Shown here in pieces: positions 4,199 to 42,922 of a DNA stretch of 64,000 bases. The notes under the pieces are model-generated. The model saw only the letters and a program-made list of their open reading frames with translations, did no database searches and was not told the DNA's origin. The DNA comes from a virus, in the IMG/VR virus record IMGVR_UViG_3300031473_000068. One strand, given 5' to 3'. The position numbers were made by a program, and so were the translations under genes. Positions within the stretch are counted from its first letter, which is position 1, and every line of letters starts with the position of its first letter.

Positions 4199-5317
4199 AT
4201 GCAGTATTCAATCACCCCGGTGCTTCATCCCTATGCTGATAAGAGCGGTCTTCACAAGTTAAATCTGCAGGTAATATATAATAGAAAGAAGGCTTACGCA
4301 CCTGCAAGTATTAAACTTAAGGAAGAATTTTGGGACAATGGTGTTATTGTTAAGCATCCTAACAGAAAAGTATTTTCGGATCTTCTCAACAAACAAAGAA
4401 ATGAAATTGAAAAACGATTAATTGAAGCTATAAGAGAGAACGCTTCTATCTCAAAGCAACGACTGGGTGAAATAGCCAAGGGTCAGAAAGAGGGAAAACA
4501 AATACTAATCACGGATTTTATTTTTGACCAGGTTAAGCTGCTTAAAGGGAGGCTCACAGAGGGACGGCTTAAACATTACAAGGTAATGGCAGGTAAGATT
4601 GAATATTTCAAAGAGGGTGCGACCTTTCGGGAAATATCAATAACCTGGTTAGGCGAATTTGAGGCATGGTTAAGGTCCAAAGGGCTGCATAGCAATACCG
4701 TACTGAGTAATATGAGTTTGCTCGTAGGAATATTTAATAAAGCTGCCGTTGCCGGCTTAATCAAAAAGGAACAGTTTGCAGGATACAAGCGGCCGCGGTA
4801 TACGCAAAAAATAAGCGAGTACCTTACCGAGGAAGAAATAAATAAACTGTTTGACCTGGTGAAAATTATTGAAAAGCCGGGTCATAAGCTTGCAGGTTAT
4901 TATTATATACTCAGTTGCCTGACAGGTTACCGCCTTAGCGACGCTAAGTCTTTTGATTATAAAAAAAACGTGCAGGACGGAAATTTAATTCTCCAGGCAA
5001 AGAAAAACAAAGCCATTGTTTCTACCCCAATATTTTCGCGGCTTGCTGAAGTGCTCGAGTATATAAAAGACAAACCTTTACATCTCAGTGAGGATAAAAT
5101 ACGGCAGTATATAAAAGAACTGTTTTCTTTAGTGGGTATTAACAAAGATATCTCTTATCATTCTTCCAGGCATAGCTACGCAATGCTTCTTATTAAAAAA
5201 GGATTCAGTATTGACGAGGTTGCCCAGGCTATTGGTGATACAGCGATAGTAGCGAAAGTATATGCCAAAATCAGCAACCCGCATTTACATAAAAAATTCA
5301 AAGAACTTTTAGGGTAA
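4199..5317 (+). CDS. int: Tyrosine recombinase/phage integrase
   Basis: GYRLSD (catalytic R), HSSRH (HxxR), VYAK (catalytic Y); Bacteroidota-type arm and SAM-like N-terminal domains. Confidence 0.93.
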   Translation: MQYSITPVLHPYADKSGLHKLNLQVIYNRKKAYAPASIKLKEEFWDNGVIVKHPNRKVFSDLLNKQRNEIEKRLIEAIRENASISKQRLGEIAKGQKEGKQILITDFIFDQVKLLKGRLTEGRLKHYKVMAGKIEYFKEGATFREISITWLGEFEAWLRSKGLHSNTVLSNMSLLVGIFNKAAVAGLIKKEQFAGYKRPRYTQKISEYLTEEEINKLFDLVKIIEKPGHKLAGYYYILSCLTGYRLSDAKSFDYKKNVQDGNLILQAKKNKAIVSTPIFSRLAEVLEYIKDKPLHLSEDKIRQYIKELFSLVGINKDISYHSSRHSYAMLLIKKGFSIDEVAQAIGDTAIVAKVYAKISNPHLHKKFKELLG

Positions 5318-15478: not shown

Positions 15479-15898
15479 ATGCCAGAAATTAAAACAGAAA
15501 AAAAATCACTCAGGTACGATTTCAAAGCGAGAGAGACACATGAAATGTCTATGCAGCTTGCCCAAAAAACTATTGAAGGGGTAGAGATTGAAAATGAATC
15601 TAAAGCTGTGCAATCGCAGTACACCTCGCGACTTAAAGTTGTTAAATCTGAAGTAGGTAAGCTATCCCGGCAAATACAAGACGGTTGGGAACTCAGGGAA
15701 ATAGAGTGTGATATTGAATATCACAAACCTGCTAAAGGTAAAAAGACTATTACCCGCAAGGATAATATGCACGAATGGGTTGAGCCAATGGAAAGCTGGG
15801 AGTGGACGCTTTTCAATCAACCAGAGGATGAAGATGATGCAGTTCAAGAGGCTGAGGTAGTAGTTGAAGATAACGGACCTAAATTATTGGAAAATTAA
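15479..15898 (+). CDS. Conserved phage hypothetical protein
   Basis: 139-aa ORF, coiled coil then acidic tail. Confidence 0.7.
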   Translation: MPEIKTEKKSLRYDFKARETHEMSMQLAQKTIEGVEIENESKAVQSQYTSRLKVVKSEVGKLSRQIQDGWELREIECDIEYHKPAKGKKTITRKDNMHEWVEPMESWEWTLFNQPEDEDDAVQEAEVVVEDNGPKLLEN

Positions 15899-16602
15899 TG
15901 ATAGGCATTTATAAAATAACAAGTCCAATGGGCAGGTTTTACATCGGACAAAGCCGGGATATCGAACGAAGGTTTGCTACTTATAAACGATTAAGCTGCA
16001 AATCTCAACCTAAACTTTACGCCTCGTTGGTTAAGTATGGTGTTAATAATCATTATTTTGAAGTATTGGTTGAATGCGAAGAAAGTGAACTTAATTATTA
16101 CGAAACTTTTTATATCCGCCAAAACCAAAGTTTTAGATCCCAAAACCTGAATTGCAGAATGGACGGGATTTATCAAATGGCGTCCGATGAGACAAGAAAA
16201 AAAATCAGCGAAATTAATAAAGGCAGGGTTGTTTCCGAAGAAACCAGACTAAAATTGAGTTTAAATGCAAAAGGTAAGCCATCGCCGAACAAAGGAAAAA
16301 AGGTGGCACCTGAGATTGTACAAAAGCAAAGGATAAAACTAATTGAAGGAGGAAAAGTTAAAGGGCCTAACAACCCTTTCTACGGTAAGACGCATAGCGA
16401 AGCAAACCTTAGCAAAATGCGCGGTAAATCTAAAGGAGTCGGCGGCTTAAATAATACAGCAAAACTTGTAATTAACACAGAGACGGGAATGTTTTACGAC
16501 TGTATAAAAGATGCTGCTGAGTCAATTCTATTGAAGCCCTACGTTCTTAGTAAAATGCTGAGAGGTGACAGGAAAAACAAAACATCATTTATTTATGCCT
16601 GA
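15898..16602 (+). CDS. GIY-YIG homing endonuclease with NUMOD3 and C-terminal NUMOD1-like motifs
   Basis: GIYKIT...YIGQS; SDETRKKISE/SEETRLKLS repeats; NPFYGKTHS. Confidence 0.88.
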   Translation: MIGIYKITSPMGRFYIGQSRDIERRFATYKRLSCKSQPKLYASLVKYGVNNHYFEVLVECEESELNYYETFYIRQNQSFRSQNLNCRMDGIYQMASDETRKKISEINKGRVVSEETRLKLSLNAKGKPSPNKGKKVAPEIVQKQRIKLIEGGKVKGPNNPFYGKTHSEANLSKMRGKSKGVGGLNNTAKLVINTETGMFYDCIKDAAESILLKPYVLSKMLRGDRKNKTSFIYA

Positions 16603-18157
16603 ACTAAGAATATATCAGCACCGGCTTATTGATGCACTGTCAAAGAAGGCAGCATTAGGCAAAAAAAGGCTTATTGCTCAACTCGCAACAGGCGGAGGTA
16701 AGACCGTGTGTTTTGCCGGATTGATACAAAGATTCTTAATTAAGCAACAAAAGAGGGTTGTAATTATTGTTCATAGGGAAGAGCTTTTAAAGCAAGCGGT
16801 AAGAACACTGTTTGAATGGTATAATATATCTGCGGCTCCTGTTACCGCAGATACAAATTATCTCCCTAATGTTATGGTGTACGTTGGTATGGTAGAAACC
16901 GTCAATAACAGGCTAAAGAAAAATCCTGCATATTTCGGTAATGTCGGATTGCTTATTGCCGACGAATGTCACGTTGGAAATCACAAGAAAGTATATGATT
17001 ATTTTAAAGAATCTATTATAATAGGATTTACTGCGACGCCAATATCCGGAAGCAAAAAAGATCCTCTAAAAAACTACTTTGAAGATATTTGCTGTGGCAT
17101 TGATATTCCCGATTTGATTGCAGAAAGAAGCCTGGTGCAGAACAGGACATACCATATACGAAATATCGAAAGAAAAAACCTTCTTATAAAAAATGGAGAA
17201 TTTGATGAGGCGCAAATGGGCTCTGTTTTTTCATCTTCAAAGCATGTACATAATTGTCTTAAAGCATATCGTGACTATTCAGAAGGTAAAAAGACGATCA
17301 TATTCAATTGCAACATAGCACACTCAAAAAAAGTTAATGATGCTTTTTTGAGTTACGGTTATCCATCCAAGCATTTGGATGGGGAGACCGACCATAAAGA
17401 ACGTGGCGAAATTCTACAGTGGTTTAAAAAAACACCGAATGCCATCTTAAATAATTGTTCAGTACTCACAACAGGATTCGATGAAACATCTATAATAACC
17501 GGAATTATTAACAGGTCAACAATGTCAACTTCCTTGTGGCTGCAGATGGCAGGAAGGATGGCGAGGCCTCACACCGGAAAAGAATATTTCCAAATCATTG
17601 ACATGGGCGGCAATGCTTTGTATCATGGCGACTGGTGCGAAAGCCGTGATTGGTCTGATATATTTTTCAATCCTGAAAAGCCAAAAGGACCCGGTGAAGC
17701 GCCTGTAAAAGCGTGTGTAAGCTGCAATGTCTTAATTCATCTTTCTCAACGAATTTGCCCTCACTGTGGCGCCTTAAACGCCCAGGCCGTTAAGTATGAT
17801 GAAGGTATTGTACAATTCGAACTCCTTTCCAGCCAAAAGCCTATTGATATTAATGTTAAGCAATTGATTGCCGAGCAGGCATGTAAGCTTAAAGCAGATG
17901 GTCAGCCTTACAAAGATATTTCGGTGTTGCACACTATTAAATACAAAATAATTATTCATGCTCAAAGAATTTGGCGGCTTAAAAAGATTGATGATAAGAC
18001 GGCTTATAAGCTTATTGTATTTTATGAGCAGCGCGTAAAAGACTGGGTTGATATCAAAGGTGAAAAGTATGCCTGGTGCAATAATATTGCTAAAGAGTGG
18101 ATGATGGCAGAACTAAAACGGACTTTTGATTGGGAACCGGTAAAATTAACAGCGTGA
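16595..18157 (+). CDS. SF2 DEAD/DEAH helicase (RadD/YejH-like) with zinc finger
   Basis: ATGGGKT, DECH, TATP, QMAGR; CVSC/CPHC. Confidence 0.9.
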   Translation: MPELRIYQHRLIDALSKKAALGKKRLIAQLATGGGKTVCFAGLIQRFLIKQQKRVVIIVHREELLKQAVRTLFEWYNISAAPVTADTNYLPNVMVYVGMVETVNNRLKKNPAYFGNVGLLIADECHVGNHKKVYDYFKESIIIGFTATPISGSKKDPLKNYFEDICCGIDIPDLIAERSLVQNRTYHIRNIERKNLLIKNGEFDEAQMGSVFSSSKHVHNCLKAYRDYSEGKKTIIFNCNIAHSKKVNDAFLSYGYPSKHLDGETDHKERGEILQWFKKTPNAILNNCSVLTTGFDETSIITGIINRSTMSTSLWLQMAGRMARPHTGKEYFQIIDMGGNALYHGDWCESRDWSDIFFNPEKPKGPGEAPVKACVSCNVLIHLSQRICPHCGALNAQAVKYDEGIVQFELLSSQKPIDINVKQLIAEQACKLKADGQPYKDISVLHTIKYKIIIHAQRIWRLKKIDDKTAYKLIVFYEQRVKDWVDIKGEKYAWCNNIAKEWMMAELKRTFDWEPVKLTA

Positions 18158-29083: not shown

Positions 29084-29262
29084 ATTTATATAATAACACC
29101 TTCTTACTTATTACCATATCCGCAAAATAATCATTTTCGTAAAAATTAAATTTGTTTTCAAGCATAGTGATACTTAATGATAACCTTTCTGAAAGTCAAC
29201 AATTGTATCATAATATGTCTTAGCTCTTTGACATCCGCTTTTCTCATTTCAAAACAAAATTT

Positions 29263-29493: not shown

Positions 29494-30920
29494 AGATAAG
29501 TACCCGCGGGTGGGATAATGCATATATTCCAGACAAAGTTTTTGTTGAACGGTTACAACCTGCACCCGCTTTTGAGTACAGCGAAACGGCACCTTCTCAT
29601 TTATCTGCTATTGAAAATCTACTAAATGGTTTTTATGCAAGTCAGAATTATTTGCAGCTTTTCTATATGCTGCCTGAAATATTCGCACCTGTTCATGAAA
29701 TAGCAAGTCGTGTAAGTGACGCAACATGGCAACTGCGTTCATTTGCTAATGATGAAGTACTTTATACCGATGATAATTTTAACCGTTTGTTTTCCCAGCC
29801 TAATCCGCTCAATACAATGAGGCAAATGGTTTATCAGGCTGTATGTTATGAAATAGTAATCGGTAAAAATTTCTTTTTTAAGAATATCCCCAAAACATTG
29901 CCTAATCAATTATCCTCTATTGTAGCATGGTGGAATCTGCCTGCAAATAATGTAAATGCAGATATGATAAAGGGCTATGATGCTTATTCTGCCACTGCAA
30001 TTACAGATTTTGTTAATAATTACAAAATACCGGATAACAAGGGAGGATATAGAATTTTTGATGTTAATAACGTTTTGCCTATTGTTAATTACTCGCTCGG
30101 TAATCCTACAGATATAAATGCGGCTTCCAGCATGTTAAAAGGTGCTGATAAAGCTATAAAAAATCTAATACCTGTTTATGAAGCACGACATACCATATAC
30201 ATCAAACGCGGTGCAATGGGGTTTATGGCAAGCCGGAAAAAAGATGACAGTGGTATTGTGGCGCTTACATCCAAAGAAAAGAAAGATGCCATAAACGAAT
30301 TAAATTTCGATTACGGTCTGACAGGGGGGCGCGCTACGATTGGAGTGACTTCTGCACCGGTGGAATTTGTAAGAACGAATATGAGCATTTCGGAAATGGA
30401 GCCTTTTAATGAGACATTAGCCGATGCTGTAGCTATTTACAAAGTTTTAAGAGTACCACGGCATTTAGTTCCTTCAAAAGATAACAGCACTTTCGCTAAT
30501 GCAGATGCAGATTTGAAAAGTTTTTATTCTGATGTAATAATCCCTTGGGCAAAGCGATACGCTGAACTGTGGACAACATGGTTAGGTATTGACACTAAAT
30601 TAAATTATAAGAAGTATGTATATGCTGATTTTTCTCATATAGAAATACTTCACGAAAATAAAAAAGATAAAGCAGCAACCGATCAGATTCAGGGTGGTGT
30701 GATGCTTCAAAGGTTCAGTGCAGGTGTCGCGTCTCTAAACGATTGGTTGATATCATTAAGAGAAGAAGAAGTAAACCTGCCTATATATCAAAAGAAGCTG
30801 GGTGAAATGGATGAAACAGAGTTACAACTAATAAAAAGCTTTATAAACCTAAAAGTAAATGTCGCTACTTCAACAGAAGATAAAGGAAATCAAACTCCGG
30901 GCAGCACCGATCAATTATAG
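29490..30920 (+). CDS. Portal protein (HK97-like)
   Basis: QPNP motif, IAxxxxVPxxL...STFAN, size and position between terL and protease. Confidence 0.88.
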   Translation: MKISTRGWDNAYIPDKVFVERLQPAPAFEYSETAPSHLSAIENLLNGFYASQNYLQLFYMLPEIFAPVHEIASRVSDATWQLRSFANDEVLYTDDNFNRLFSQPNPLNTMRQMVYQAVCYEIVIGKNFFFKNIPKTLPNQLSSIVAWWNLPANNVNADMIKGYDAYSATAITDFVNNYKIPDNKGGYRIFDVNNVLPIVNYSLGNPTDINAASSMLKGADKAIKNLIPVYEARHTIYIKRGAMGFMASRKKDDSGIVALTSKEKKDAINELNFDYGLTGGRATIGVTSAPVEFVRTNMSISEMEPFNETLADAVAIYKVLRVPRHLVPSKDNSTFANADADLKSFYSDVIIPWAKRYAELWTTWLGIDTKLNYKKYVYADFSHIEILHENKKDKAATDQIQGGVMLQRFSAGVASLNDWLISLREEEVNLPIYQKKLGEMDETELQLIKSFINLKVNVATSTEDKGNQTPGSTDQL

Positions 30921-31842
30921 CACGGTCGCCATTAACGAACGTGGAGAATTGACCGATAATGATTTGGATAAGCGTATTATTAAAGGCTATCTGATTGTCT
31001 GGGGAGTAAAAAACGATTACGGAGAAAAGTGTATAAAAGGATGTTGTTCAAAATCAATCCGGGAAAGAGGCCCTCAAAGCAATGCAAAATATAAGATAAC
31101 ATTTCTCTGGCAGCATAAACAGGATGATCCCTTAGCATTATTTGCTAAGCTTGAAGAGGATGATTACGGGCTTTATTTTGAAACGTTACCTCTTGATGAT
31201 GTCCCAAATGCGGATCGTGCATTAAAGCAGGTACGGAGCAAAACTCTAAATCAATTTTCAGTAGGCTTTGATTATCTATGGGACAAAATGGAGTGGGATG
31301 AAAGCGATGAAAGCATTGTTATGAAAGAACTTGATTTGTTTGAAGGTTCTATCGTAACAATTGCCGCAAACAGAGAAACTTATGCATTACGAAGTAAAGA
31401 AAACCTGGAACTGCTTCATGATGACACACAAGATTTTATCACATCGCTTCCTCGTTCAAAACAACTGGAAGCGAGACAAATATTTGCCCGCCATAAGGAG
31501 CTTATTGTTAGGGAAATGGATATGACAAATGACTATTCCAATCCAAACATTGCGTTTATAGACAAGATGATACCACATCATCAGATGGCAATAGATATGA
31601 TTAATGAATTTAAAGCGAAGGTTAACAACGAGCCGCTAATAGGCATAATGAGTAACATATCTATTAGTCAAGCATCTGAAATAAAACAAATGAATAGTAT
31701 AAAAACAACTATAACTGCCCGTCATAAGACACTTTTAAATATTGAGCCGCTTGAGCAAAGCAACATAGCACTCGATAATGAAAAGCCGGATGAGAAAGGA
31801 GGCGTGAATTACAATTACTTAACAGAAAACTTTTCATTTTAA
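30859..31842 (+). CDS. HK97-type prohead protease with C-terminal DUF305-like insert
   Basis: FLWQH, GLYFE, FSVGF, LFEGSIV...AAN motifs; insert MIPHHQMAIDM. Confidence 0.88.
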   Translation: MSLLQQKIKEIKLRAAPINYSTVAINERGELTDNDLDKRIIKGYLIVWGVKNDYGEKCIKGCCSKSIRERGPQSNAKYKITFLWQHKQDDPLALFAKLEEDDYGLYFETLPLDDVPNADRALKQVRSKTLNQFSVGFDYLWDKMEWDESDESIVMKELDLFEGSIVTIAANRETYALRSKENLELLHDDTQDFITSLPRSKQLEARQIFARHKELIVREMDMTNDYSNPNIAFIDKMIPHHQMAIDMINEFKAKVNNEPLIGIMSNISISQASEIKQMNSIKTTITARHKTLLNIEPLEQSNIALDNEKPDEKGGVNYNYLTENFSF

Positions 31843-37248: not shown

Positions 37249-38166
37249 ATGGCATCAGCACTCATAACTCCATGCGACGTTACCGAAGAAGAAAGTTTTA
37301 ATACCGGTATTGAAGGCAACTGTGCACTGGGAGTTGCAGCAGGTATTATCATTGTTAATTCAACGGATACATGGACAAAAGCAGATATGGCCGATCCGGA
37401 TGCTTTTATAAAAGCGAGGATACATGCCGGTACTTCTCAACGATTCAGGCCTGTATTCCAGGGGATATTTGATTTTGCCTATGCTAAAGAAAGTGATCAG
37501 ACAGAAGCAAATCCAATTAAAGGTACTACCAGGGTTACACGACCCGGTGGCCTTACCTTCACTTATACCTGGGAGGGTGGACTTTGCTTAGCAGGAAGGC
37601 TCGCAGCAGTGCAGGGTAAAAGTTACCGTTATATTCCTTTTGACTCTGATAGCCAGTTTCTGTTAAATAAAAATCTGGATGGCACATATAGCGGACTTGA
37701 AAGTTCTGATATTACAGCCAATTACAATCCTTTTACGCCTGGCTCTTCAGCAAAAAGCATATTGGTTTTAAACACTCCTTACAAAAAATACGTACGTGCT
37801 GAATTGTTTAAAGCCAATGTTGATTTAACAGACCTGAACGGCCTGATAGATGTTGACATAATCAAAGCAGCAGCAGCCACCACCACGAAGCTTATAATTG
37901 GCGTACAGACACAATGCAAGAAAACTGATTTAATTGCAAAGTACCCAACTGCTATAGCTGATCTTGATTTGTACATAGTTACAAATAAAGCAACCGGCGC
38001 AGTAGTAACACCAACGGCAGCAGCAGTTGTCGGCGGTCGCATAGAGCTTACAGGAACGTATGTAACAGGGCAAACCTATATCGTTACCGGTTCGGCGCCA
38101 TCTGTATGGCTGGCAAACCTTATCGAAGGTTATGATGCAACAAATCCGGTAGAAATAACTGTATAA
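37249..38166 (+). CDS. Major tail tube protein
   Basis: Size, position, beta-rich sequence, C-terminal Ig-like extension. Confidence 0.7.
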   Translation: MASALITPCDVTEEESFNTGIEGNCALGVAAGIIIVNSTDTWTKADMADPDAFIKARIHAGTSQRFRPVFQGIFDFAYAKESDQTEANPIKGTTRVTRPGGLTFTYTWEGGLCLAGRLAAVQGKSYRYIPFDSDSQFLLNKNLDGTYSGLESSDITANYNPFTPGSSAKSILVLNTPYKKYVRAELFKANVDLTDLNGLIDVDIIKAAAATTTKLIIGVQTQCKKTDLIAKYPTAIADLDLYIVTNKATGAVVTPTAAAVVGGRIELTGTYVTGQTYIVTGSAPSVWLANLIEGYDATNPVEITV

Positions 38167-38177
38167 AACATAGAACA

Positions 38178-38384
38178 ATGCTAAAAAATAAGACCAAAGT
38201 AAACGGTGCCTCTGTAAATCTTTCAGAAATTGCAAAGCTTAAAAGCATAGATGAGCTTAAAACACTTGAGATATTTTCCGAAGACGCGGACGCTTCAAAT
38301 CAAAAGGTTTGGGATGCTGCTCAGGAGTTTAAGGCTAAAGTCGAACCGCCTAAAGCCGAACCGCCTAAAGTAGTCAAAAAGTAG
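38178..38384 (+). CDS. Small tail-assembly-associated protein
   Basis: Follows tail tube gene; 15-bp tandem duplication encoding EPPKA/EPPKV. Confidence 0.6.
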   Translation: MLKNKTKVNGASVNLSEIAKLKSIDELKTLEIFSEDADASNQKVWDAAQEFKAKVEPPKAEPPKVVKK

Positions 38385-38415
38385 TAATGGTTATTGAATA
38401 TGGATTAAAAATGGG

Positions 38416-38446
38416 AAAGTCGGCCTGATTACGGCTGACTTTTTTT
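38416..38446 (+). terminator. Rho-independent terminator
   Basis: AAAGTCGGC-loop-GCTGACTTTTTTT. Confidence 0.75.
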
Positions 38447-38450
38447 ATAA

Positions 38451-38924
38451 ATGCTAAACCGCCTAAAAAATAAAATCGCCGCTCTGCAAAAGTTTTCTTT
38501 TGGGGATGAACTAAAGAAAATAGTTGAGGATAATAAAGATAAGTTAGCGGATCTGCAAAGAGATCAATTAGTAAAAGGTAAAGACAGTAATAATAATTAC
38601 ATAAAATTAAAAGATAATCATTCTTACGGTGGAGGTTATAGGCCTTTTACTATTAATGAAAAACAAAGATACGGTAAAGGTACAGGAGCAATAGTAGGTC
38701 ATATTACCTGGTTTATGACAGGCAAATTGCATGAATCAATAAGGGCATTTATATCGGGGGATAAGTTTAGACTAAAATCACATGATTTCAAATTCGAAAA
38801 ATTGATTATTAGAAGTGGTGAAGAAGCGATCGGACTTAATGCAGACAGCAGACGTGAGTTTGTGACTGAAGTTACGCGGCCAAACATTTTAAAGGTTTAT
38901 CAGGAGAAGGTGGCAGGTGTTTAA
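38451..38924 (+). CDS. HK97 gp10-like neck/tail completion protein
   Basis: DQLxxGxD...YRPFTxxxK...TxFxTGxLxxS...GL pattern. Confidence 0.65.
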   Translation: MLNRLKNKIAALQKFSFGDELKKIVEDNKDKLADLQRDQLVKGKDSNNNYIKLKDNHSYGGGYRPFTINEKQRYGKGTGAIVGHITWFMTGKLHESIRAFISGDKFRLKSHDFKFEKLIIRSGEEAIGLNADSRREFVTEVTRPNILKVYQEKVAGV

Positions 38925-38927
38925 TTT
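38917..38927. repeat. Left inverted repeat GTGTTTAATTT
   Basis: Reverse complement at 39575-39585. Confidence 0.7.
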
Positions 38928-39556
38928 GTATGCACTTTATTAGTCATTTGCCTGGCCGAACTGATCATAACGGCAAGCCGGGCGACAGAAGTTCTTTCTT
39001 CATCAATTTTAAAACCTAAAGCTTCTAAACTATTAAGCTGTTCATAGAAGGTTTTAATTGAGTAAGATACCTTTTTGTTTGCCGTTGAATCCGTAATAAA
39101 TTGGTTAAAGTCTTTAAGCAATTCTTCTAACTGCACCTCTTTAAGTTTCTCGCGGGTTTGGGCGTTTTGGACTTGTGTGTGAAGATCATTGATATCATTA
39201 TTAAAAACTAAAGAAATGCCAATCTTCCTGAGCCTTTCAATTGCTTCAAAAGCTTGCGGCAATAGCTCTGTAAAGACACTCGTTTTAATGTAACGGATAT
39301 TTTCATTCAGAATAAAAAAACATGATTTGGCACGTTCTATCCTGCTATATAAAGCATTTATCTTTTTTTGTTTTGTGATTTCAGGCATTTCCGTACCTGA
39401 CAAGTCTATAAACTCAGTCAAAATATTATCCCATGCATACAATAATTCATCTGCGGCCGGTTCGCCTTCAATTATCAGTGCCCCTAAATTATTATCAAAT
39501 TCACAAGAGATAAATATCCTGATACTGCATTCCGAGGCCTTGCTTATTAATTTCAT
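38921..39556 (-). CDS. Pre-tape-measure (tail assembly chaperone-like) protein in inverted orientation
   Basis: Only long ORF here; helical; FIxC...LIIEG...AWxxIxxEF and GFKID patterns resemble Bacteroidota pre-TMP proteins (from memory). Confidence 0.55.
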   Translation of the reverse strand: MKLISKASECSIRIFISCEFDNNLGALIIEGEPAADELLYAWDNILTEFIDLSGTEMPEITKQKKINALYSRIERAKSCFFILNENIRYIKTSVFTELLPQAFEAIERLRKIGISLVFNNDINDLHTQVQNAQTREKLKEVQLEELLKDFNQFITDSTANKKVSYSIKTFYEQLNSLEALGFKIDEERTSVARLAVMISSARQMTNKVHTN

Positions 39557-39574
39557 AAGATATAAATATACAAA

Positions 39575-39585
39575 AAATTAAACAC
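39575..39585. repeat. Right inverted repeat AAATTAAACAC
   Basis: Perfect reverse complement of 38917-38927. Confidence 0.7.
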
Positions 39586-39592
39586 AAAAGCA

Positions 39593-42500
39593 ATGGAGCA
39601 GGATATACTCGATATTGGTTTTAATGTTAAAAAAGCAGAGGCAGAAAAAAATCAAATCATTGCTTATTTTAATGAAGTGCTCTCTTATGAAAACAAGTTT
39701 ACAGGCCTGCAAAAGATATTCAATAATCCAAATTCTAATCTAAGCGATTTTAAAAAGGCAAATGAGGAATTTAAAAAGACAATAAACGAGAACCTTGCTT
39801 TATCAAAAACTTATACCCAGCAGCTTAAGGAAGAAGCAAAGCAACAGGCTGCATCCGCTCAAGCTACGGCAGCTAATGAAAAAGCCAAACGGGAGTTACT
39901 AAAGACCGACCAGGAAACAGCTAAAACGCAGACTTCCAGGGAAAGGGCGACGGCCTCACTTCTAAAAACTCAGCAGGAACAATTAAAGATCGATAATGCT
40001 GATATTAAAATTACCAGGGAAAAGATAAAAAATGAGACAGAGGAACAGAGGTTAGCTCAGGCACAACTGCGCACAGCAGCGCTGCGGGTGGCAGAAAGCA
40101 ATAAGGCATTAGCAATAGATAAGAAAGAAGCAAAGGCCATTGAAGAATTATCCAACGATTACAAACAACTTTCACTGGCCTATGCAGATGCAGCGTTAAA
40201 GGCAAAAAATCTTGCACTGCAGCAGGGCAATAATTCAGCAGCAGCGAAAACTGCCTTAGCGAATGCCAACGCTCTTGGCAACAAATTAAAAGAGGTTGAT
40301 GCACTTACAGGTTCTTTTAATCGTAATGTAGGTAACTACCCTAAATTTGATGCGATAGCTAATTCATTAGGCAGTCTGTTAAAAGGTGCTGGTTTGGCTA
40401 TAGGACTATCCACTGTAACTAATTTTCTTTCATCTTCTGTAGACGAAGCTAATCAGGCCGAGCAGGCTACTACCCGTTTCAGAAATGCGCTGCAAAACAT
40501 TGCCCGTGAAGATGTATTTGACAGGCTAAGCGCAAAAGCAAAATCATTTGTTGATACTTTTCGGTATTTGGATAACGACGACGTAACAGAGGTATTTCAG
40601 CAACTTATTACTTATGGCAAGCTTACTGAAAAACAGATCACGGACCTTACACCGGTTATTGTAAATTTCGCTGCTAAGTCAGGGCTATCGCTAAATGAAA
40701 GTGCTTCGGTAATTATAAAAGCTCTGGAAGGCAATGCCCGGGCTCTTAAAGATTATGGTATAAGTATAAAAGATGGTTCAACTGTTACAGAGCGGTTAGG
40801 TATAATAATGACCGACCTAAAACCAAAAGTGGAAGGTGCGGCAGAGGCATTTCAAAAAACGTCGGCAGGGATTAAAGCAATTGCAACACAGGACATTGCT
40901 AATCTTAAAGAAGAAATAGGGAACAAGCTATTACCCTATTTAGGACAGTTTTATAAGGCTATATCTGAAATCGTTTCAGGGTTCGGAATAATGACAACCT
41001 TCGTTAATGATAAGATTATAGCACCTATTTCAAATGCTTTATCTGTATCGAAGGCATTATTTACTTCCGGATTTTCAGGAGCAAATAAAAGACTGGATGA
41101 AATCACTCAGGAAAGCGAGGCTATTGAACGCAGCATTAAAACACAAAAAGAATTAGCAAAGGTTAGAAAGGTTGTCAATGAGGTTGCTAATGACGCTGCC
41201 GCTAAACCTTTAAAACAACAAAAGGAAATACTGGAAAGCTACCAAAAATTAAAGGAGGCATCATTTAAAACCTATAATGATTTAGCGTCTCGTGGTGAAC
41301 AACTTTCGGATAAGGGTAAGGCTGCGGCAAAAGAATTGTACTTCCAAAGTCAAGCTGTTGTTGCGCTTCAGAAAACAATTGCACAAACCCAGGATAAATC
41401 AATTTTAGGGATTGGCGATCCGGGTAAAGCTGCTAAAAAAGAAAAAGCCCATATCAAAAGCATTGCCGATGCGATCGCCGAACTGCGCAACGAGTTAAAA
41501 GCCCTGCAATCAGAGCAAGACCAGGGCATCATTACTTTTTCAGAAGCGGATACCAAACGAGCCGAAAGGTACAAATCCACTATAGAAGAAATTTTCAAGC
41601 TTAAAGCCAGCGATAAAAGTAAGGAAACGGCAGCAGTAAATCTGGGTTTGGAGCTTAACCCTATCACTCAAAGGATATTAGAAAGGCAGATACATGAACT
41701 GGTAGAAAAGCTTAATAGCAAAGGTGAAAAGATTAATCTGTTAGCGCCTCCGGATCCGGCTAAGTTTGAACAGGAACAAACAAAAGTGTATGAAGCTTCC
41801 ATTCAATTCAGGCAAAAGGTTGCAGAGAAAGATTATGCTCAGCAGCAGGACAGGTTGTTAAGACAATTTTCACAAGGCAAAATAAGCCGTAAAGAGTATG
41901 AACAGGACTTGCTTAATATTCAGGAAGCTTATGCTGAAAAAACAATTCAGTTACAAATCGATGAATATACCGCTTCTCTTAAATACGCCTTTACCGGTGT
42001 AGAAAATACTCAGGAAAACGCAGATAAGCGCTTAGAAATTGAAAAGAAATTAGCAGAGGCTCAACTGCAATTAGACCAAAGGATTTCGGATAGCCATAAG
42101 AAAACTAACGATAAAAGGAGAGAAGATTTAGTTAAGTTTCTAAGTGATGCTCAGGTAATATTTAACCAGGTGGCAGATGTAATAGGCGGGGTAGTTAATA
42201 TCGGTGTTACTAACCAAAAAAATGCTTTGCAGGATTTAGAAGATCAAAGGCAAAAAACCTATCAGCAGGAGGTTGACCGGATACAAAACTCCGTTTTAAG
42301 CGAGCAGGACAAATCGGATAAAATAAAAGTATTAGAGGCAAAGCGACAGGCACAGAAAGAAGAATTTGATCGTAAGAACAGGGAAGCTGACCGAAGGAAA
42401 GCGGCATTTGATAAGCAACAGGCGATATTCAACATTATATTAGAGGGTACTATTGCCGTTGTAAAAGCAGCAGGTAGAAGCCTGTTTGAAGCTATTGCTG

Positions 42501-42922
42501 TGGGTGTCTTATTTGCTGCAAAACTCGCCGTTCTAATTGCTACGCCTTTGCCGAAGTATGCGAAGGGAATTAAAAACAAAGCCGCTGACAGCTTTGGTAT
42601 TGCCGGTGAGGCTGGTCCCGAAGTTATAAAGTTGCCCGGCAAAGAGTCGTTTATTGTTGAAAAAGAAACAATAATGTACATGCCCAAAGGAACCGACATT
42701 ACCCCGCTTTCAAAAGAAGGTATTAATGAAATTATGTATCGCAGCATGGCAAGGCAAACCGCCCAGGTCATAAACTTTAATAACAAAAGCGATAAGTCAG
42801 AACATCTTTTAATGGAGTTAATAAATGAAACACGAAAGGGCAATTCAAAGAAAAGCAGCTTTCAGTTTAATTTTCGGCATGATCCGTCCTGGACTGCTTA
42901 TAAAAATAAATATTATAGCTAA
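39593..42922 (+). CDS. Tail tape measure protein
   Basis: 1109 aa, A/K/E/Q-rich helical, C-terminal PLPKYAKG...AGEAGPE motif. Confidence 0.92.
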   Translation: MEQDILDIGFNVKKAEAEKNQIIAYFNEVLSYENKFTGLQKIFNNPNSNLSDFKKANEEFKKTINENLALSKTYTQQLKEEAKQQAASAQATAANEKAKRELLKTDQETAKTQTSRERATASLLKTQQEQLKIDNADIKITREKIKNETEEQRLAQAQLRTAALRVAESNKALAIDKKEAKAIEELSNDYKQLSLAYADAALKAKNLALQQGNNSAAAKTALANANALGNKLKEVDALTGSFNRNVGNYPKFDAIANSLGSLLKGAGLAIGLSTVTNFLSSSVDEANQAEQATTRFRNALQNIAREDVFDRLSAKAKSFVDTFRYLDNDDVTEVFQQLITYGKLTEKQITDLTPVIVNFAAKSGLSLNESASVIIKALEGNARALKDYGISIKDGSTVTERLGIIMTDLKPKVEGAAEAFQKTSAGIKAIATQDIANLKEEIGNKLLPYLGQFYKAISEIVSGFGIMTTFVNDKIIAPISNALSVSKALFTSGFSGANKRLDEITQESEAIERSIKTQKELAKVRKVVNEVANDAAAKPLKQQKEILESYQKLKEASFKTYNDLASRGEQLSDKGKAAAKELYFQSQAVVALQKTIAQTQDKSILGIGDPGKAAKKEKAHIKSIADAIAELRNELKALQSEQDQGIITFSEADTKRAERYKSTIEEIFKLKASDKSKETAAVNLGLELNPITQRILERQIHELVEKLNSKGEKINLLAPPDPAKFEQEQTKVYEASIQFRQKVAEKDYAQQQDRLLRQFSQGKISRKEYEQDLLNIQEAYAEKTIQLQIDEYTASLKYAFTGVENTQENADKRLEIEKKLAEAQLQLDQRISDSHKKTNDKRREDLVKFLSDAQVIFNQVADVIGGVVNIGVTNQKNALQDLEDQRQKTYQQEVDRIQNSVLSEQDKSDKIKVLEAKRQAQKEEFDRKNREADRRKAAFDKQQAIFNIILEGTIAVVKAAGRSLFEAIAVGVLFAAKLAVLIATPLPKYAKGIKNKAADSFGIAGEAGPEVIKLPGKESFIVEKETIMYMPKGTDITPLSKEGINEIMYRSMARQTAQVINFNNKSDKSEHLLMELINETRKGNSKKSSFQFNFRHDPSWTAYKNKYYS

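Follow-up and report, generated by a model that had tools for sequence, protein, structure and literature searches.

In a prophage within the 64,000-nucleotide stretch of DNA filed as IMG/VR record IMGVR_UViG_3300031473_000068 (hereafter the window, which comes from a rock metagenome), one gene of the tail module, P0001 (38921..39556, minus strand, 211 aa by open reading frame (ORF) call and translation), is encoded against the strand of its neighbours and adjoins the gene for the tape measure protein (TMP). The best overall explanation, to which we assign a probability of roughly three in four, is that P0001 encodes a TMP-binding assembly factor whose gene was inverted in place in a distant ancestor and has been fixed in that state since, with the short inverted repeat (IR) at its borders being coincidental. 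A preliminary description of this region had read the same repeat and the same odd orientation as an invertible ON/OFF switch, a proposal that did not survive comparison with related loci. That we are dealing with a fixed ancient inversion, and not with a switch, is very likely; that the protein is a TMP-binding assembly factor, a role suggested by a modeled complex, is a slightly favored assignment.

P0001 converges on an upstream gene for a 157-aa tail protein (38451..38924, plus strand; phrog_6195 "tail protein", E 3e-18), with the two 3′ ends overlapping by 4 nt, and diverges from the TMP gene (39593..42922, plus strand, 1109 aa, assigned from its size, its position and an alignment with 8 relatives). 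The preliminary description was right in singling out P0001 as the only long minus-strand ORF of the head-tail region, as no other minus-strand ORF of the structural region (29–60 kb) lies outside a plus-strand gene, and it was equally right about the repeat: GTGTTTAATTT (38917..38927) and AAATTAAACAC (39575..39585) are perfect reverse complements, with 647 nt separating the two 11-bp arms. The left arm holds the overlapping stops of the two convergent genes, both stop codons lying within the palindrome TTAA at 38921–38924, while the right arm lies in the 36-nt divergent spacer between the P0001 ATG and the TMP ATG (39593), 8–18 nt 5′ of the latter and 19–29 nt 5′ of the former. The arithmetic of the proposed flip was also correct when recounted, in that the upstream TAA (38922–38924) would be kept with the P0001 ATG 21 nt after it, and the P0001 TAA would move to 39579–39581, 11 nt 5′ of the TMP ATG.

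The evidence that carries our interpretation comes from the relatives of P0001 and the loci in which they lie. A word-indexed protein search with P0001 returns only the query itself, and exhaustive HMMER was needed to find relatives; at E ≤ 1e-3, it recovered 120 cluster representatives, of which almost all are full-length, at about 190–260 aa. Genomic contexts were recovered for 19 of these 120, and in 19/19 the family gene directly adjoins the 5′ end of a TMP-sized gene (~890–1330 aa), the usual order being a ~300–317-aa gene, a ~60–75-aa gene, a homologue of the ~150-aa tail protein, the family gene and the TMP-sized gene. Wherever blastp could resolve the flanking ORFs, they matched the tail protein or the N-terminus of TMP, in the latter case with alignments that start at residue 1; the ORF downstream in L021 gave no blastp hit.

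Ten of the contexts are inverted with respect to both neighbors (the window, L004, L005/6, L007, L013, L014, L015, L017, L018 and L019). Their proteins are 27–40% identical to P0001, the P0001-type ORF is intact in every one of them, most have the same 4-nt TTAA stop overlap, and in 9/10 the divergent spacer to the TMP gene measures 19–75 nt; no cultured phage was found in this inverted clade. At L015, the inverted family gene shares the first 35 nt of its 5′ end with the divergent TMP gene (4542–4576), and the start may be mis-called. At L017 (1022–3965), the TMP region is broken into ORFs of 261, 223 and 489 aa. The other nine contexts (L008, the IMG/VR contig L009, L016, P0030, L020, L021, P0061, Pan5 gp13 and LS06-2018-MD05 gene 82) are co-oriented with their neighbors; here, the family gene typically overlaps the upstream stop by 1–11 nt, mostly by 4, with its own ATG overlapping, and its 3′ end either overlaps the TMP start or stops up to 24 nt short of it. 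Two of these nine are from named phages: gp13 of the Pseudanabaena phage Pan5 (UXO94055.1, "hypothetical protein") belongs to the family with an hhalign probability of 99.5% (E 2e-22), and gene 82 of the Rhodobacteraceae phage LS06-2018-MD05, annotated as a "head scaffolding protein", with one of 98.1%. Pan5 is an isolated cyanophage, a siphophage, in which the homologue of the 157-aa protein is annotated as a "tail completion protein".

For a maximum-likelihood tree built from 69 members of the family, one change of orientation is enough, as it is for 200/200 bootstrap trees; when the orientation labels were shuffled, 2/500 trials also needed only one change. All ten inverted rows fall within one clade of 31 members (support 90/94), and the four co-oriented rows then known all fall within its sister clade (support 94/82). 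Since the inverted rows are confined to one clade, the tree needs only the single change, and since the outgroup members P0028, P0050 and P0061, whose contexts were looked up after the tree had been built, are co-oriented, the inverted orientation is the derived state. When the orientation is checked in relatives, as the preliminary description had suggested, the nearest ones (27–40% identity) all carry the gene on the opposite strand in the same slot, and more distant phages carry it in the direction of the operon. The simplest history would be a single ancient in-place inversion of exactly the P0001 ORF, subsequently inherited.

The repeat itself does not follow the orientation. Near the gene ends of the nine other inverted loci, the best perfect IR is only 5–8 nt, with none longer, which is the typical range in shuffles of the window and in sliding placements. 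In the window, an 11-bp perfect repeat is present at the P0001 borders with a placement p of ~0.001–0.003 per gene: a perfect IR of at least 11 nt whose arms lie within −60/+30 nt of the respective ends of a given ORF was obtained in 0.3% of 5000 shuffles and at 1 of 1655 sliding control placements. Inverted 11-mer pairs at a spacing of 300–2000 nt are at background level in the window (74 k-mer pairs, compared with ~50 expected by our own estimate from base composition), and an exact 11-nt direct repeat is also present in the same 1.7-kb stretch. The placement of the repeat is thus mildly surprising for a single gene and unremarkable over a scan of many windows, and the 11-bp repeat in the window phage is most likely a coincidence that drives no programmed inversion.

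We also looked for the machinery and the products of a flip. A Pfam scan of 30 ORFs of the window, in which the smaller ORFs were not all included, found no invertase, the sole recombinase being the prophage integrase (4199–5317). Contigs from four sequencing runs (three studies) were aligned on window positions 38000–40500, and every contig crossing 38917–27 or 39575–85 has the orientation of the window, including a variant that is ~90–95% identical (soil runs X3 and X4), with no strand-changing joint at the repeats reported in any contig of the four runs; the ENA, JGI and Logan assemblies (three further assemblies beyond the four runs) hold identical contigs that are oriented in the same way. 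The preliminary description had suggested examining reads across both repeats, and what stands here is the absence of the flipped form from Logan contigs, which are not raw reads and from which rare variants could escape. As contigs are blind to a rare subpopulation, this evidence is supportive and not conclusive, and because runs X1 and X2 may represent the source sample, they are not independent of the window. We note one further record at the right arm: record 12 of run X4 (soil) is an 89-nt contig of depth 3.3 that follows the plus strand over 39561–39585 and then the complement from 39622 back to 39561, such that it folds back precisely at 39585, where the arm ends. This differs from the predicted flip junction and resembles a low-depth library or unitig artefact, despite the coincidence in position.

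The divergent spacer holds a candidate promoter for the inverted gene. The motif TATATTTA (39563..39570, minus strand), at −14 to −7 of the P0001 ATG, resembles the Bacteroidota −7 element (consensus TAnnTTTG), and forms part of the TTGTATATTTA to which the preliminary description had pointed. A TAnnTTT(A/G) box occurs within 45 nt 5′ of the ATG on the strand of the gene in 9/10 inverted loci (L015 being the sole exception) and on the other strand in 0/10, and it starts at −12 to −14 in six loci. In a shuffle control of 2000 trials, the mean was 1.4 and the maximum 6 of the ten loci, with no trial reaching 9. The alternative offered by the preliminary description itself, in which the inversion is fixed and the gene has a promoter-like TTGTATATTTA of its own, fits, TATATTTA being one case of a box that recurs across the inverted loci. 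Because this −7-like box is conserved in the spacer, P0001 probably has a promoter of its own that directs its transcription counter to that of the late operon, and the position of the box at −14 to −7 would imply a nearly leaderless mRNA.

On the plus strand, no exact TAnnTTTG is found between 29147 and 40342, that is, across the portal-to-TMP block, the last such motif (at 29147) lying just 5′ of the portal gene. This gap is consistent with a single long late transcript that would reach the TMP gene by read-through. As no terminator-like site was found after the P0001 gene either, we infer that late transcription passes through P0001, in antisense, to TMP. A scan for sigma-70-type promoters was set aside, since such a scan does not apply to Bacteroidota and its counts were no higher than chance.

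On the evidence of its sequence and predicted fold, P0001 is a real, conserved phage gene, given the 120 family representatives, the intact ORF in 10/10 inverted loci and a confident structural model. AlphaFold2 (AF2), run on an alignment of 61 sequences, gave an all-helical model with a predicted local distance difference test score (pLDDT) of 95.8, with a long helical hairpin and with long helices at residues 58–92 and 122–162, whereas the model from the single P0001 sequence was unusable (pLDDT 41). The small N-terminal domain holds two cysteines (C10 and C18) and an FDNNL-like motif that show little or no variation across the 12 closest members of the family; residues 10 and 18 of P0001 correspond to 39503–39529 (minus strand) of the window, and these conserved features lie outside the predicted TMP interface discussed below.

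The family is widespread in siphophages and is previously unnamed and unannotated. Nothing in Pfam, PHROG, NCBIfam or PADLOC matches P0001 above noise, and 61 of its relatives, scanned singly, have no Pfam, PHROG or NCBIfam family match. Matches of P0001 to PADLOC JetC and NCBIfam Cap4, as well as to Pfam Laminin_II and similar families, were rejected as coiled-coil noise far below the cut-offs. With Foldseek, no PDB structure matched the fold at E ≤ 0.001, a profile search of the PDB gave best matches only at E > 0.01, and a VIA wide fold search returned generic helical hairpins (flagellin D0/D1 and designed bundles) at a best Z of 9.9, which is below the level that the tool itself treats as meaningful for helical proteins. 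Structure matches in BFVD and AFDB are to uncharacterized phage or bacterial proteins only, including proteins from the Olleya phage Harreka_1 and a Flavobacterium phage, and protein atlas matches are to viral "hypothetical protein" clusters only. A tblastn search of a phage collection with P0001, P0016 and P0033 gave no match, and a narrower family alignment searched against genome contigs found no related locus.

A role for this protein is suggested by its position and by a model of its complex with TMP. In 19/19 contexts, the family gene lies next to the 5′ end of the TMP gene and after the tube-protein region, and the preliminary description's suggestion of a pre-TMP chaperone-like protein gains support, in that the family occupies the place just before TMP in the tail modules of siphophages and is co-oriented in distant phages. 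When P0001 was modeled together with TMP residues 1–420, the complex scored 0.65, with the best of three controls scoring 0.00. At the 0.65 mark, the calibration of the tool has 58/80 solved complexes and 2/110 mismatched pairs, counts that hold only roughly here, since we used our own alignments (61 rows for P0001 and 9 rows for TMP). The three model runs have at least 34% of contacts in common, with a partner pLDDT of at least 77, and the confident interface pairs TMP residues 15–67 (39635–39793, plus strand), the predicted P0001-binding helix, with P0001 residues 47–108; the contacts predicted there include those of TMP 26–43 with P0001 64–82. The complex model thus supports TMP binding but does not show it.

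Further comparisons bear on what kind of assembly factor this might be. The annotated "tail assembly chaperone" or pre-TMP genes of the Elizabethkingia phage TCUEAP2, the Parabacteroides phage PD691P6 and the Bacteroides phage B124-14 have no similarity to the family profile, in a test that is weak because each template was a single sequence. A −1 frameshift fusion is not possible in the inverted clade, as the P0001 gene lies on the strand opposite to its upstream neighbor; a frameshift product is not indicated in the co-oriented relatives, which have their own ATG over the upstream stop, although slippery sites were not searched for.

Taken together, these observations suggest the following history. 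In the ancestor, the family gene would have been co-directional with its neighbors and tightly coupled to them, overlapping the upstream ~150-aa tail gene and ending near the TMP start. In an ancestor of the clade to which the window prophage belongs, exactly one ORF would then have been inverted in place and the new state fixed, leaving the gene convergent on the upstream tail gene, with TTAA common to both stops, and divergent from TMP. A nearly leaderless promoter of its own would drive the inverted gene in opposition to the late operon, and the central helical hairpin of its product probably binds the N-terminal helix of TMP, acting as a TMP chaperone or cap in tail assembly, of which few copies would be needed per tail. 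For a factor required in few copies, weak expression from within an antisense position could be enough, and this may explain how the inversion persisted.

Two of the rival explanations give the repeat a function. In a programmed phase switch, a recombinase would flip the 647-bp segment and so alternately disrupt the tail operon and restore its canonical order, and a perfect 11-bp IR exactly at the gene borders, with a per-gene chance of ~0.003, and a flipped form that makes a tidy operon speak for such a switch; some known invertons do use repeats this short, that of the Escherichia coli fim switch being 9 bp. The inverted state is nevertheless common to ten loci with proteins only 27–40% identical, nine of them without any such IR, the tree has one orientation change, the 30 scanned ORFs include no invertase, the contigs of the four runs contain no flipped junction, and the conserved promoter-like box serves the inverted orientation, all of which make a switch scarcely credible. 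The preliminary description had stated that homologues lying always on the opposite strand in relatives, a lack of flipped reads and a protein unrelated to tail chaperones would speak against its proposal; most of this is what the evidence gives, with the exception that the protein does occupy the chaperone slot. The repeat could alternatively act in RNA, with its arms pairing in the late polycistronic transcript to loop out the 647-nt antisense stretch, and so either bringing the stop of the 157-aa gene beside the TMP start or masking the TMP initiation region. Both arms are indeed on the plus-strand transcript, one over the upstream stop and the other at −18 to −8 of the TMP ATG, in a placement that is improbable by chance. 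An AU-rich stem of 11 bp closing a 647-nt loop would be weak, however, and the repeat is not conserved in nine sister loci where expression poses the same difficulty, such that we consider this reading very improbable.

Other readings concern the gene rather than the repeat. P0001 could be a moron or lysogeny gene, that is, cargo expressed by the prophage and dispensable for tail assembly, for instance excluding superinfecting kin through their incoming TMP. Its opposite strand, its own promoter-like box and its location in a prophage with an integrase would all suit such a gene (lambda bor is a moron transcribed against its neighbors), and the predicted binding to the TMP N-terminus could in principle target an incoming phage. 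Cargo of this kind would not be expected in the same slot of 19/19 related tail modules, nor, as in nine contexts including that of the isolated siphophage Pan5, inside the operon and packed tightly against its neighbors; P0001 also has a GC content like that of its neighbors, no terminator of its own and no defence family above noise, and we regard a moron as improbable. A fixed inversion might, on the other hand, be functional and not neutral, which we consider unlikely. The inversion would then either throttle or time the TMP-binding factor, with a weak leaderless promoter facing late transcription limiting its synthesis to few copies per tail (the job of the G/GT frameshift ratio in lambda-like phages), or else allow expression from the prophage, where P0001 would also bind the TMP of superinfecting kin. 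The 11-bp repeat might, under such a reading, additionally pair in the late transcript and bridge the antisense insert.

Several points weigh against our preferred explanation of a fixed inversion of an assembly-factor gene with a coincidental repeat. A per-gene chance of only ~0.1–0.3% means that coincidence is not a comfortable explanation for the placement of the repeat, and the orientation sample consists of 19 contexts for 120 representatives. Contigs drop rare variants, and a low-frequency flipped subpopulation could go unseen in them. As to the promoter, the box ends in A instead of the consensus G in 8/9 loci, no −33 element was found at the canonical spacing from it, and the same AT-rich spacer also serves translation initiation of TMP on the other strand. 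The chaperone role, finally, draws on gene position and one computed complex, and P0001 has neither similarity to any Pfam tail assembly chaperone (TAC) family nor an informative structural neighbor.

The remainder of the window provides the setting for this locus. The window represents a prophage. Host genes for LptD, an acyltransferase and UDG come first, then the Bacteroidota-type tyrosine integrase at 4199–5317, and next, all on the plus strand, genes for replication, terminase, portal, protease, capsid, tail and lysis. The GC content of the window is 37%, and that of the P0001 gene (0.35–0.38) matches its neighbors. In the early region, a GIY-YIG and NUMOD3 homing-endonuclease-like gene (15898–16602) lies directly 5′ of a ResIII/DEAD helicase gene (16565–18157), and the prohead protease gene (30859–31842) carries Peptidase_S78 and DUF305 Pfam matches in the precomputed annotation of an identical contig. 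Upstream of the 157-aa gene, a 305-aa gene (37249..38166, plus strand) has no Pfam or PHROG family match and is placed by synteny only, its counterpart in relatives (305–317 aa) having the same position; this is the position of the major tail (tube) protein. The 68-aa gene that follows (38178..38384, plus strand) has a weak, sub-threshold match to the N-terminus of the lambda gpG chaperone (PF06894, E 0.0039), and relatives carry a gene of 60–75 aa in its place by synteny. A read-through fusion of the 68-aa and 157-aa genes was considered and ruled out by several stops in between. In the soil variant mentioned above (run X3, record 3; ~90–95% identical), 228 nt within 38557–38786 are replaced by 201 unrelated letters, and the replaced segment sits inside the 157-aa tail protein gene, pointing to a mosaic or hypervariable middle.

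The novelty of these findings is modest, comprising a new TMP-associated family and an unusual fixed single-gene inversion in a late operon, with no new mechanism. They remove a tempting false positive and indicate that a gene in an odd orientation, flanked by a short perfect repeat, is no phase switch when relatives have the same orientation without the repeat. They also define an unannotated siphophage family that occupies the tail-chaperone slot, with a predicted grip on the TMP N-terminal helix, found next to the TMP gene in the Bacteroidota prophage described here, in a cyanophage, in a Rhodobacteraceae phage and on many contigs of uncultured phages. For phages in which no G/GT frameshift pair can be recognized, the family offers a candidate for the missing chaperone that can be tested. 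The in-place inversion of one core structural gene of a late operon, long kept with its own promoter-like signal, would be a rare event, and provides a natural experiment on the importance of operon co-orientation for virion assembly genes.

P0001 can be compared with several known systems. Like invertons such as fimS, the Hin/Gin/Cin systems and the Bacteroides promoter invertons, the window has short perfect IRs bracketing a segment whose flip would alter the logic of an operon; unlike them, it has no invertase among the ORFs scanned and one orientation in all assemblies, the repeat is absent from relatives with the same orientation, and what would flip is a whole coding gene and not a promoter. 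With morons, P0001 has in common a reverse orientation and its own promoter-like signal inside the late region, but it is a core, universal member of the tail module and not sporadic cargo, with a normal composition and without a terminator of its own. Like the TACs (lambda gpG/gpGT; Phage_TAC), it lies between the tube-protein region and the TMP gene, is small, helical and a predicted TMP binder, and belongs to a family that was ancestrally co-transcribed and tightly coupled with its neighbors. It differs from them in lacking a Pfam or PHROG TAC match, in a predicted contact limited to the extreme N-terminal helix of TMP and, within its clade, in a gene antisense to the operon from which no frameshift product is possible. 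The nearest named counterparts are Pan5 gp13 and LS06-2018-MD05 gene 82, which belong to the same family and stand in the same order of a ~300–317-aa gene, a ~60-aa gene, a ~144-aa tail protein gene, the family gene and a TMP-sized gene, but which lie on the operon strand and overlap the start of the TMP-sized gene, whereas the copy in the window is inverted.

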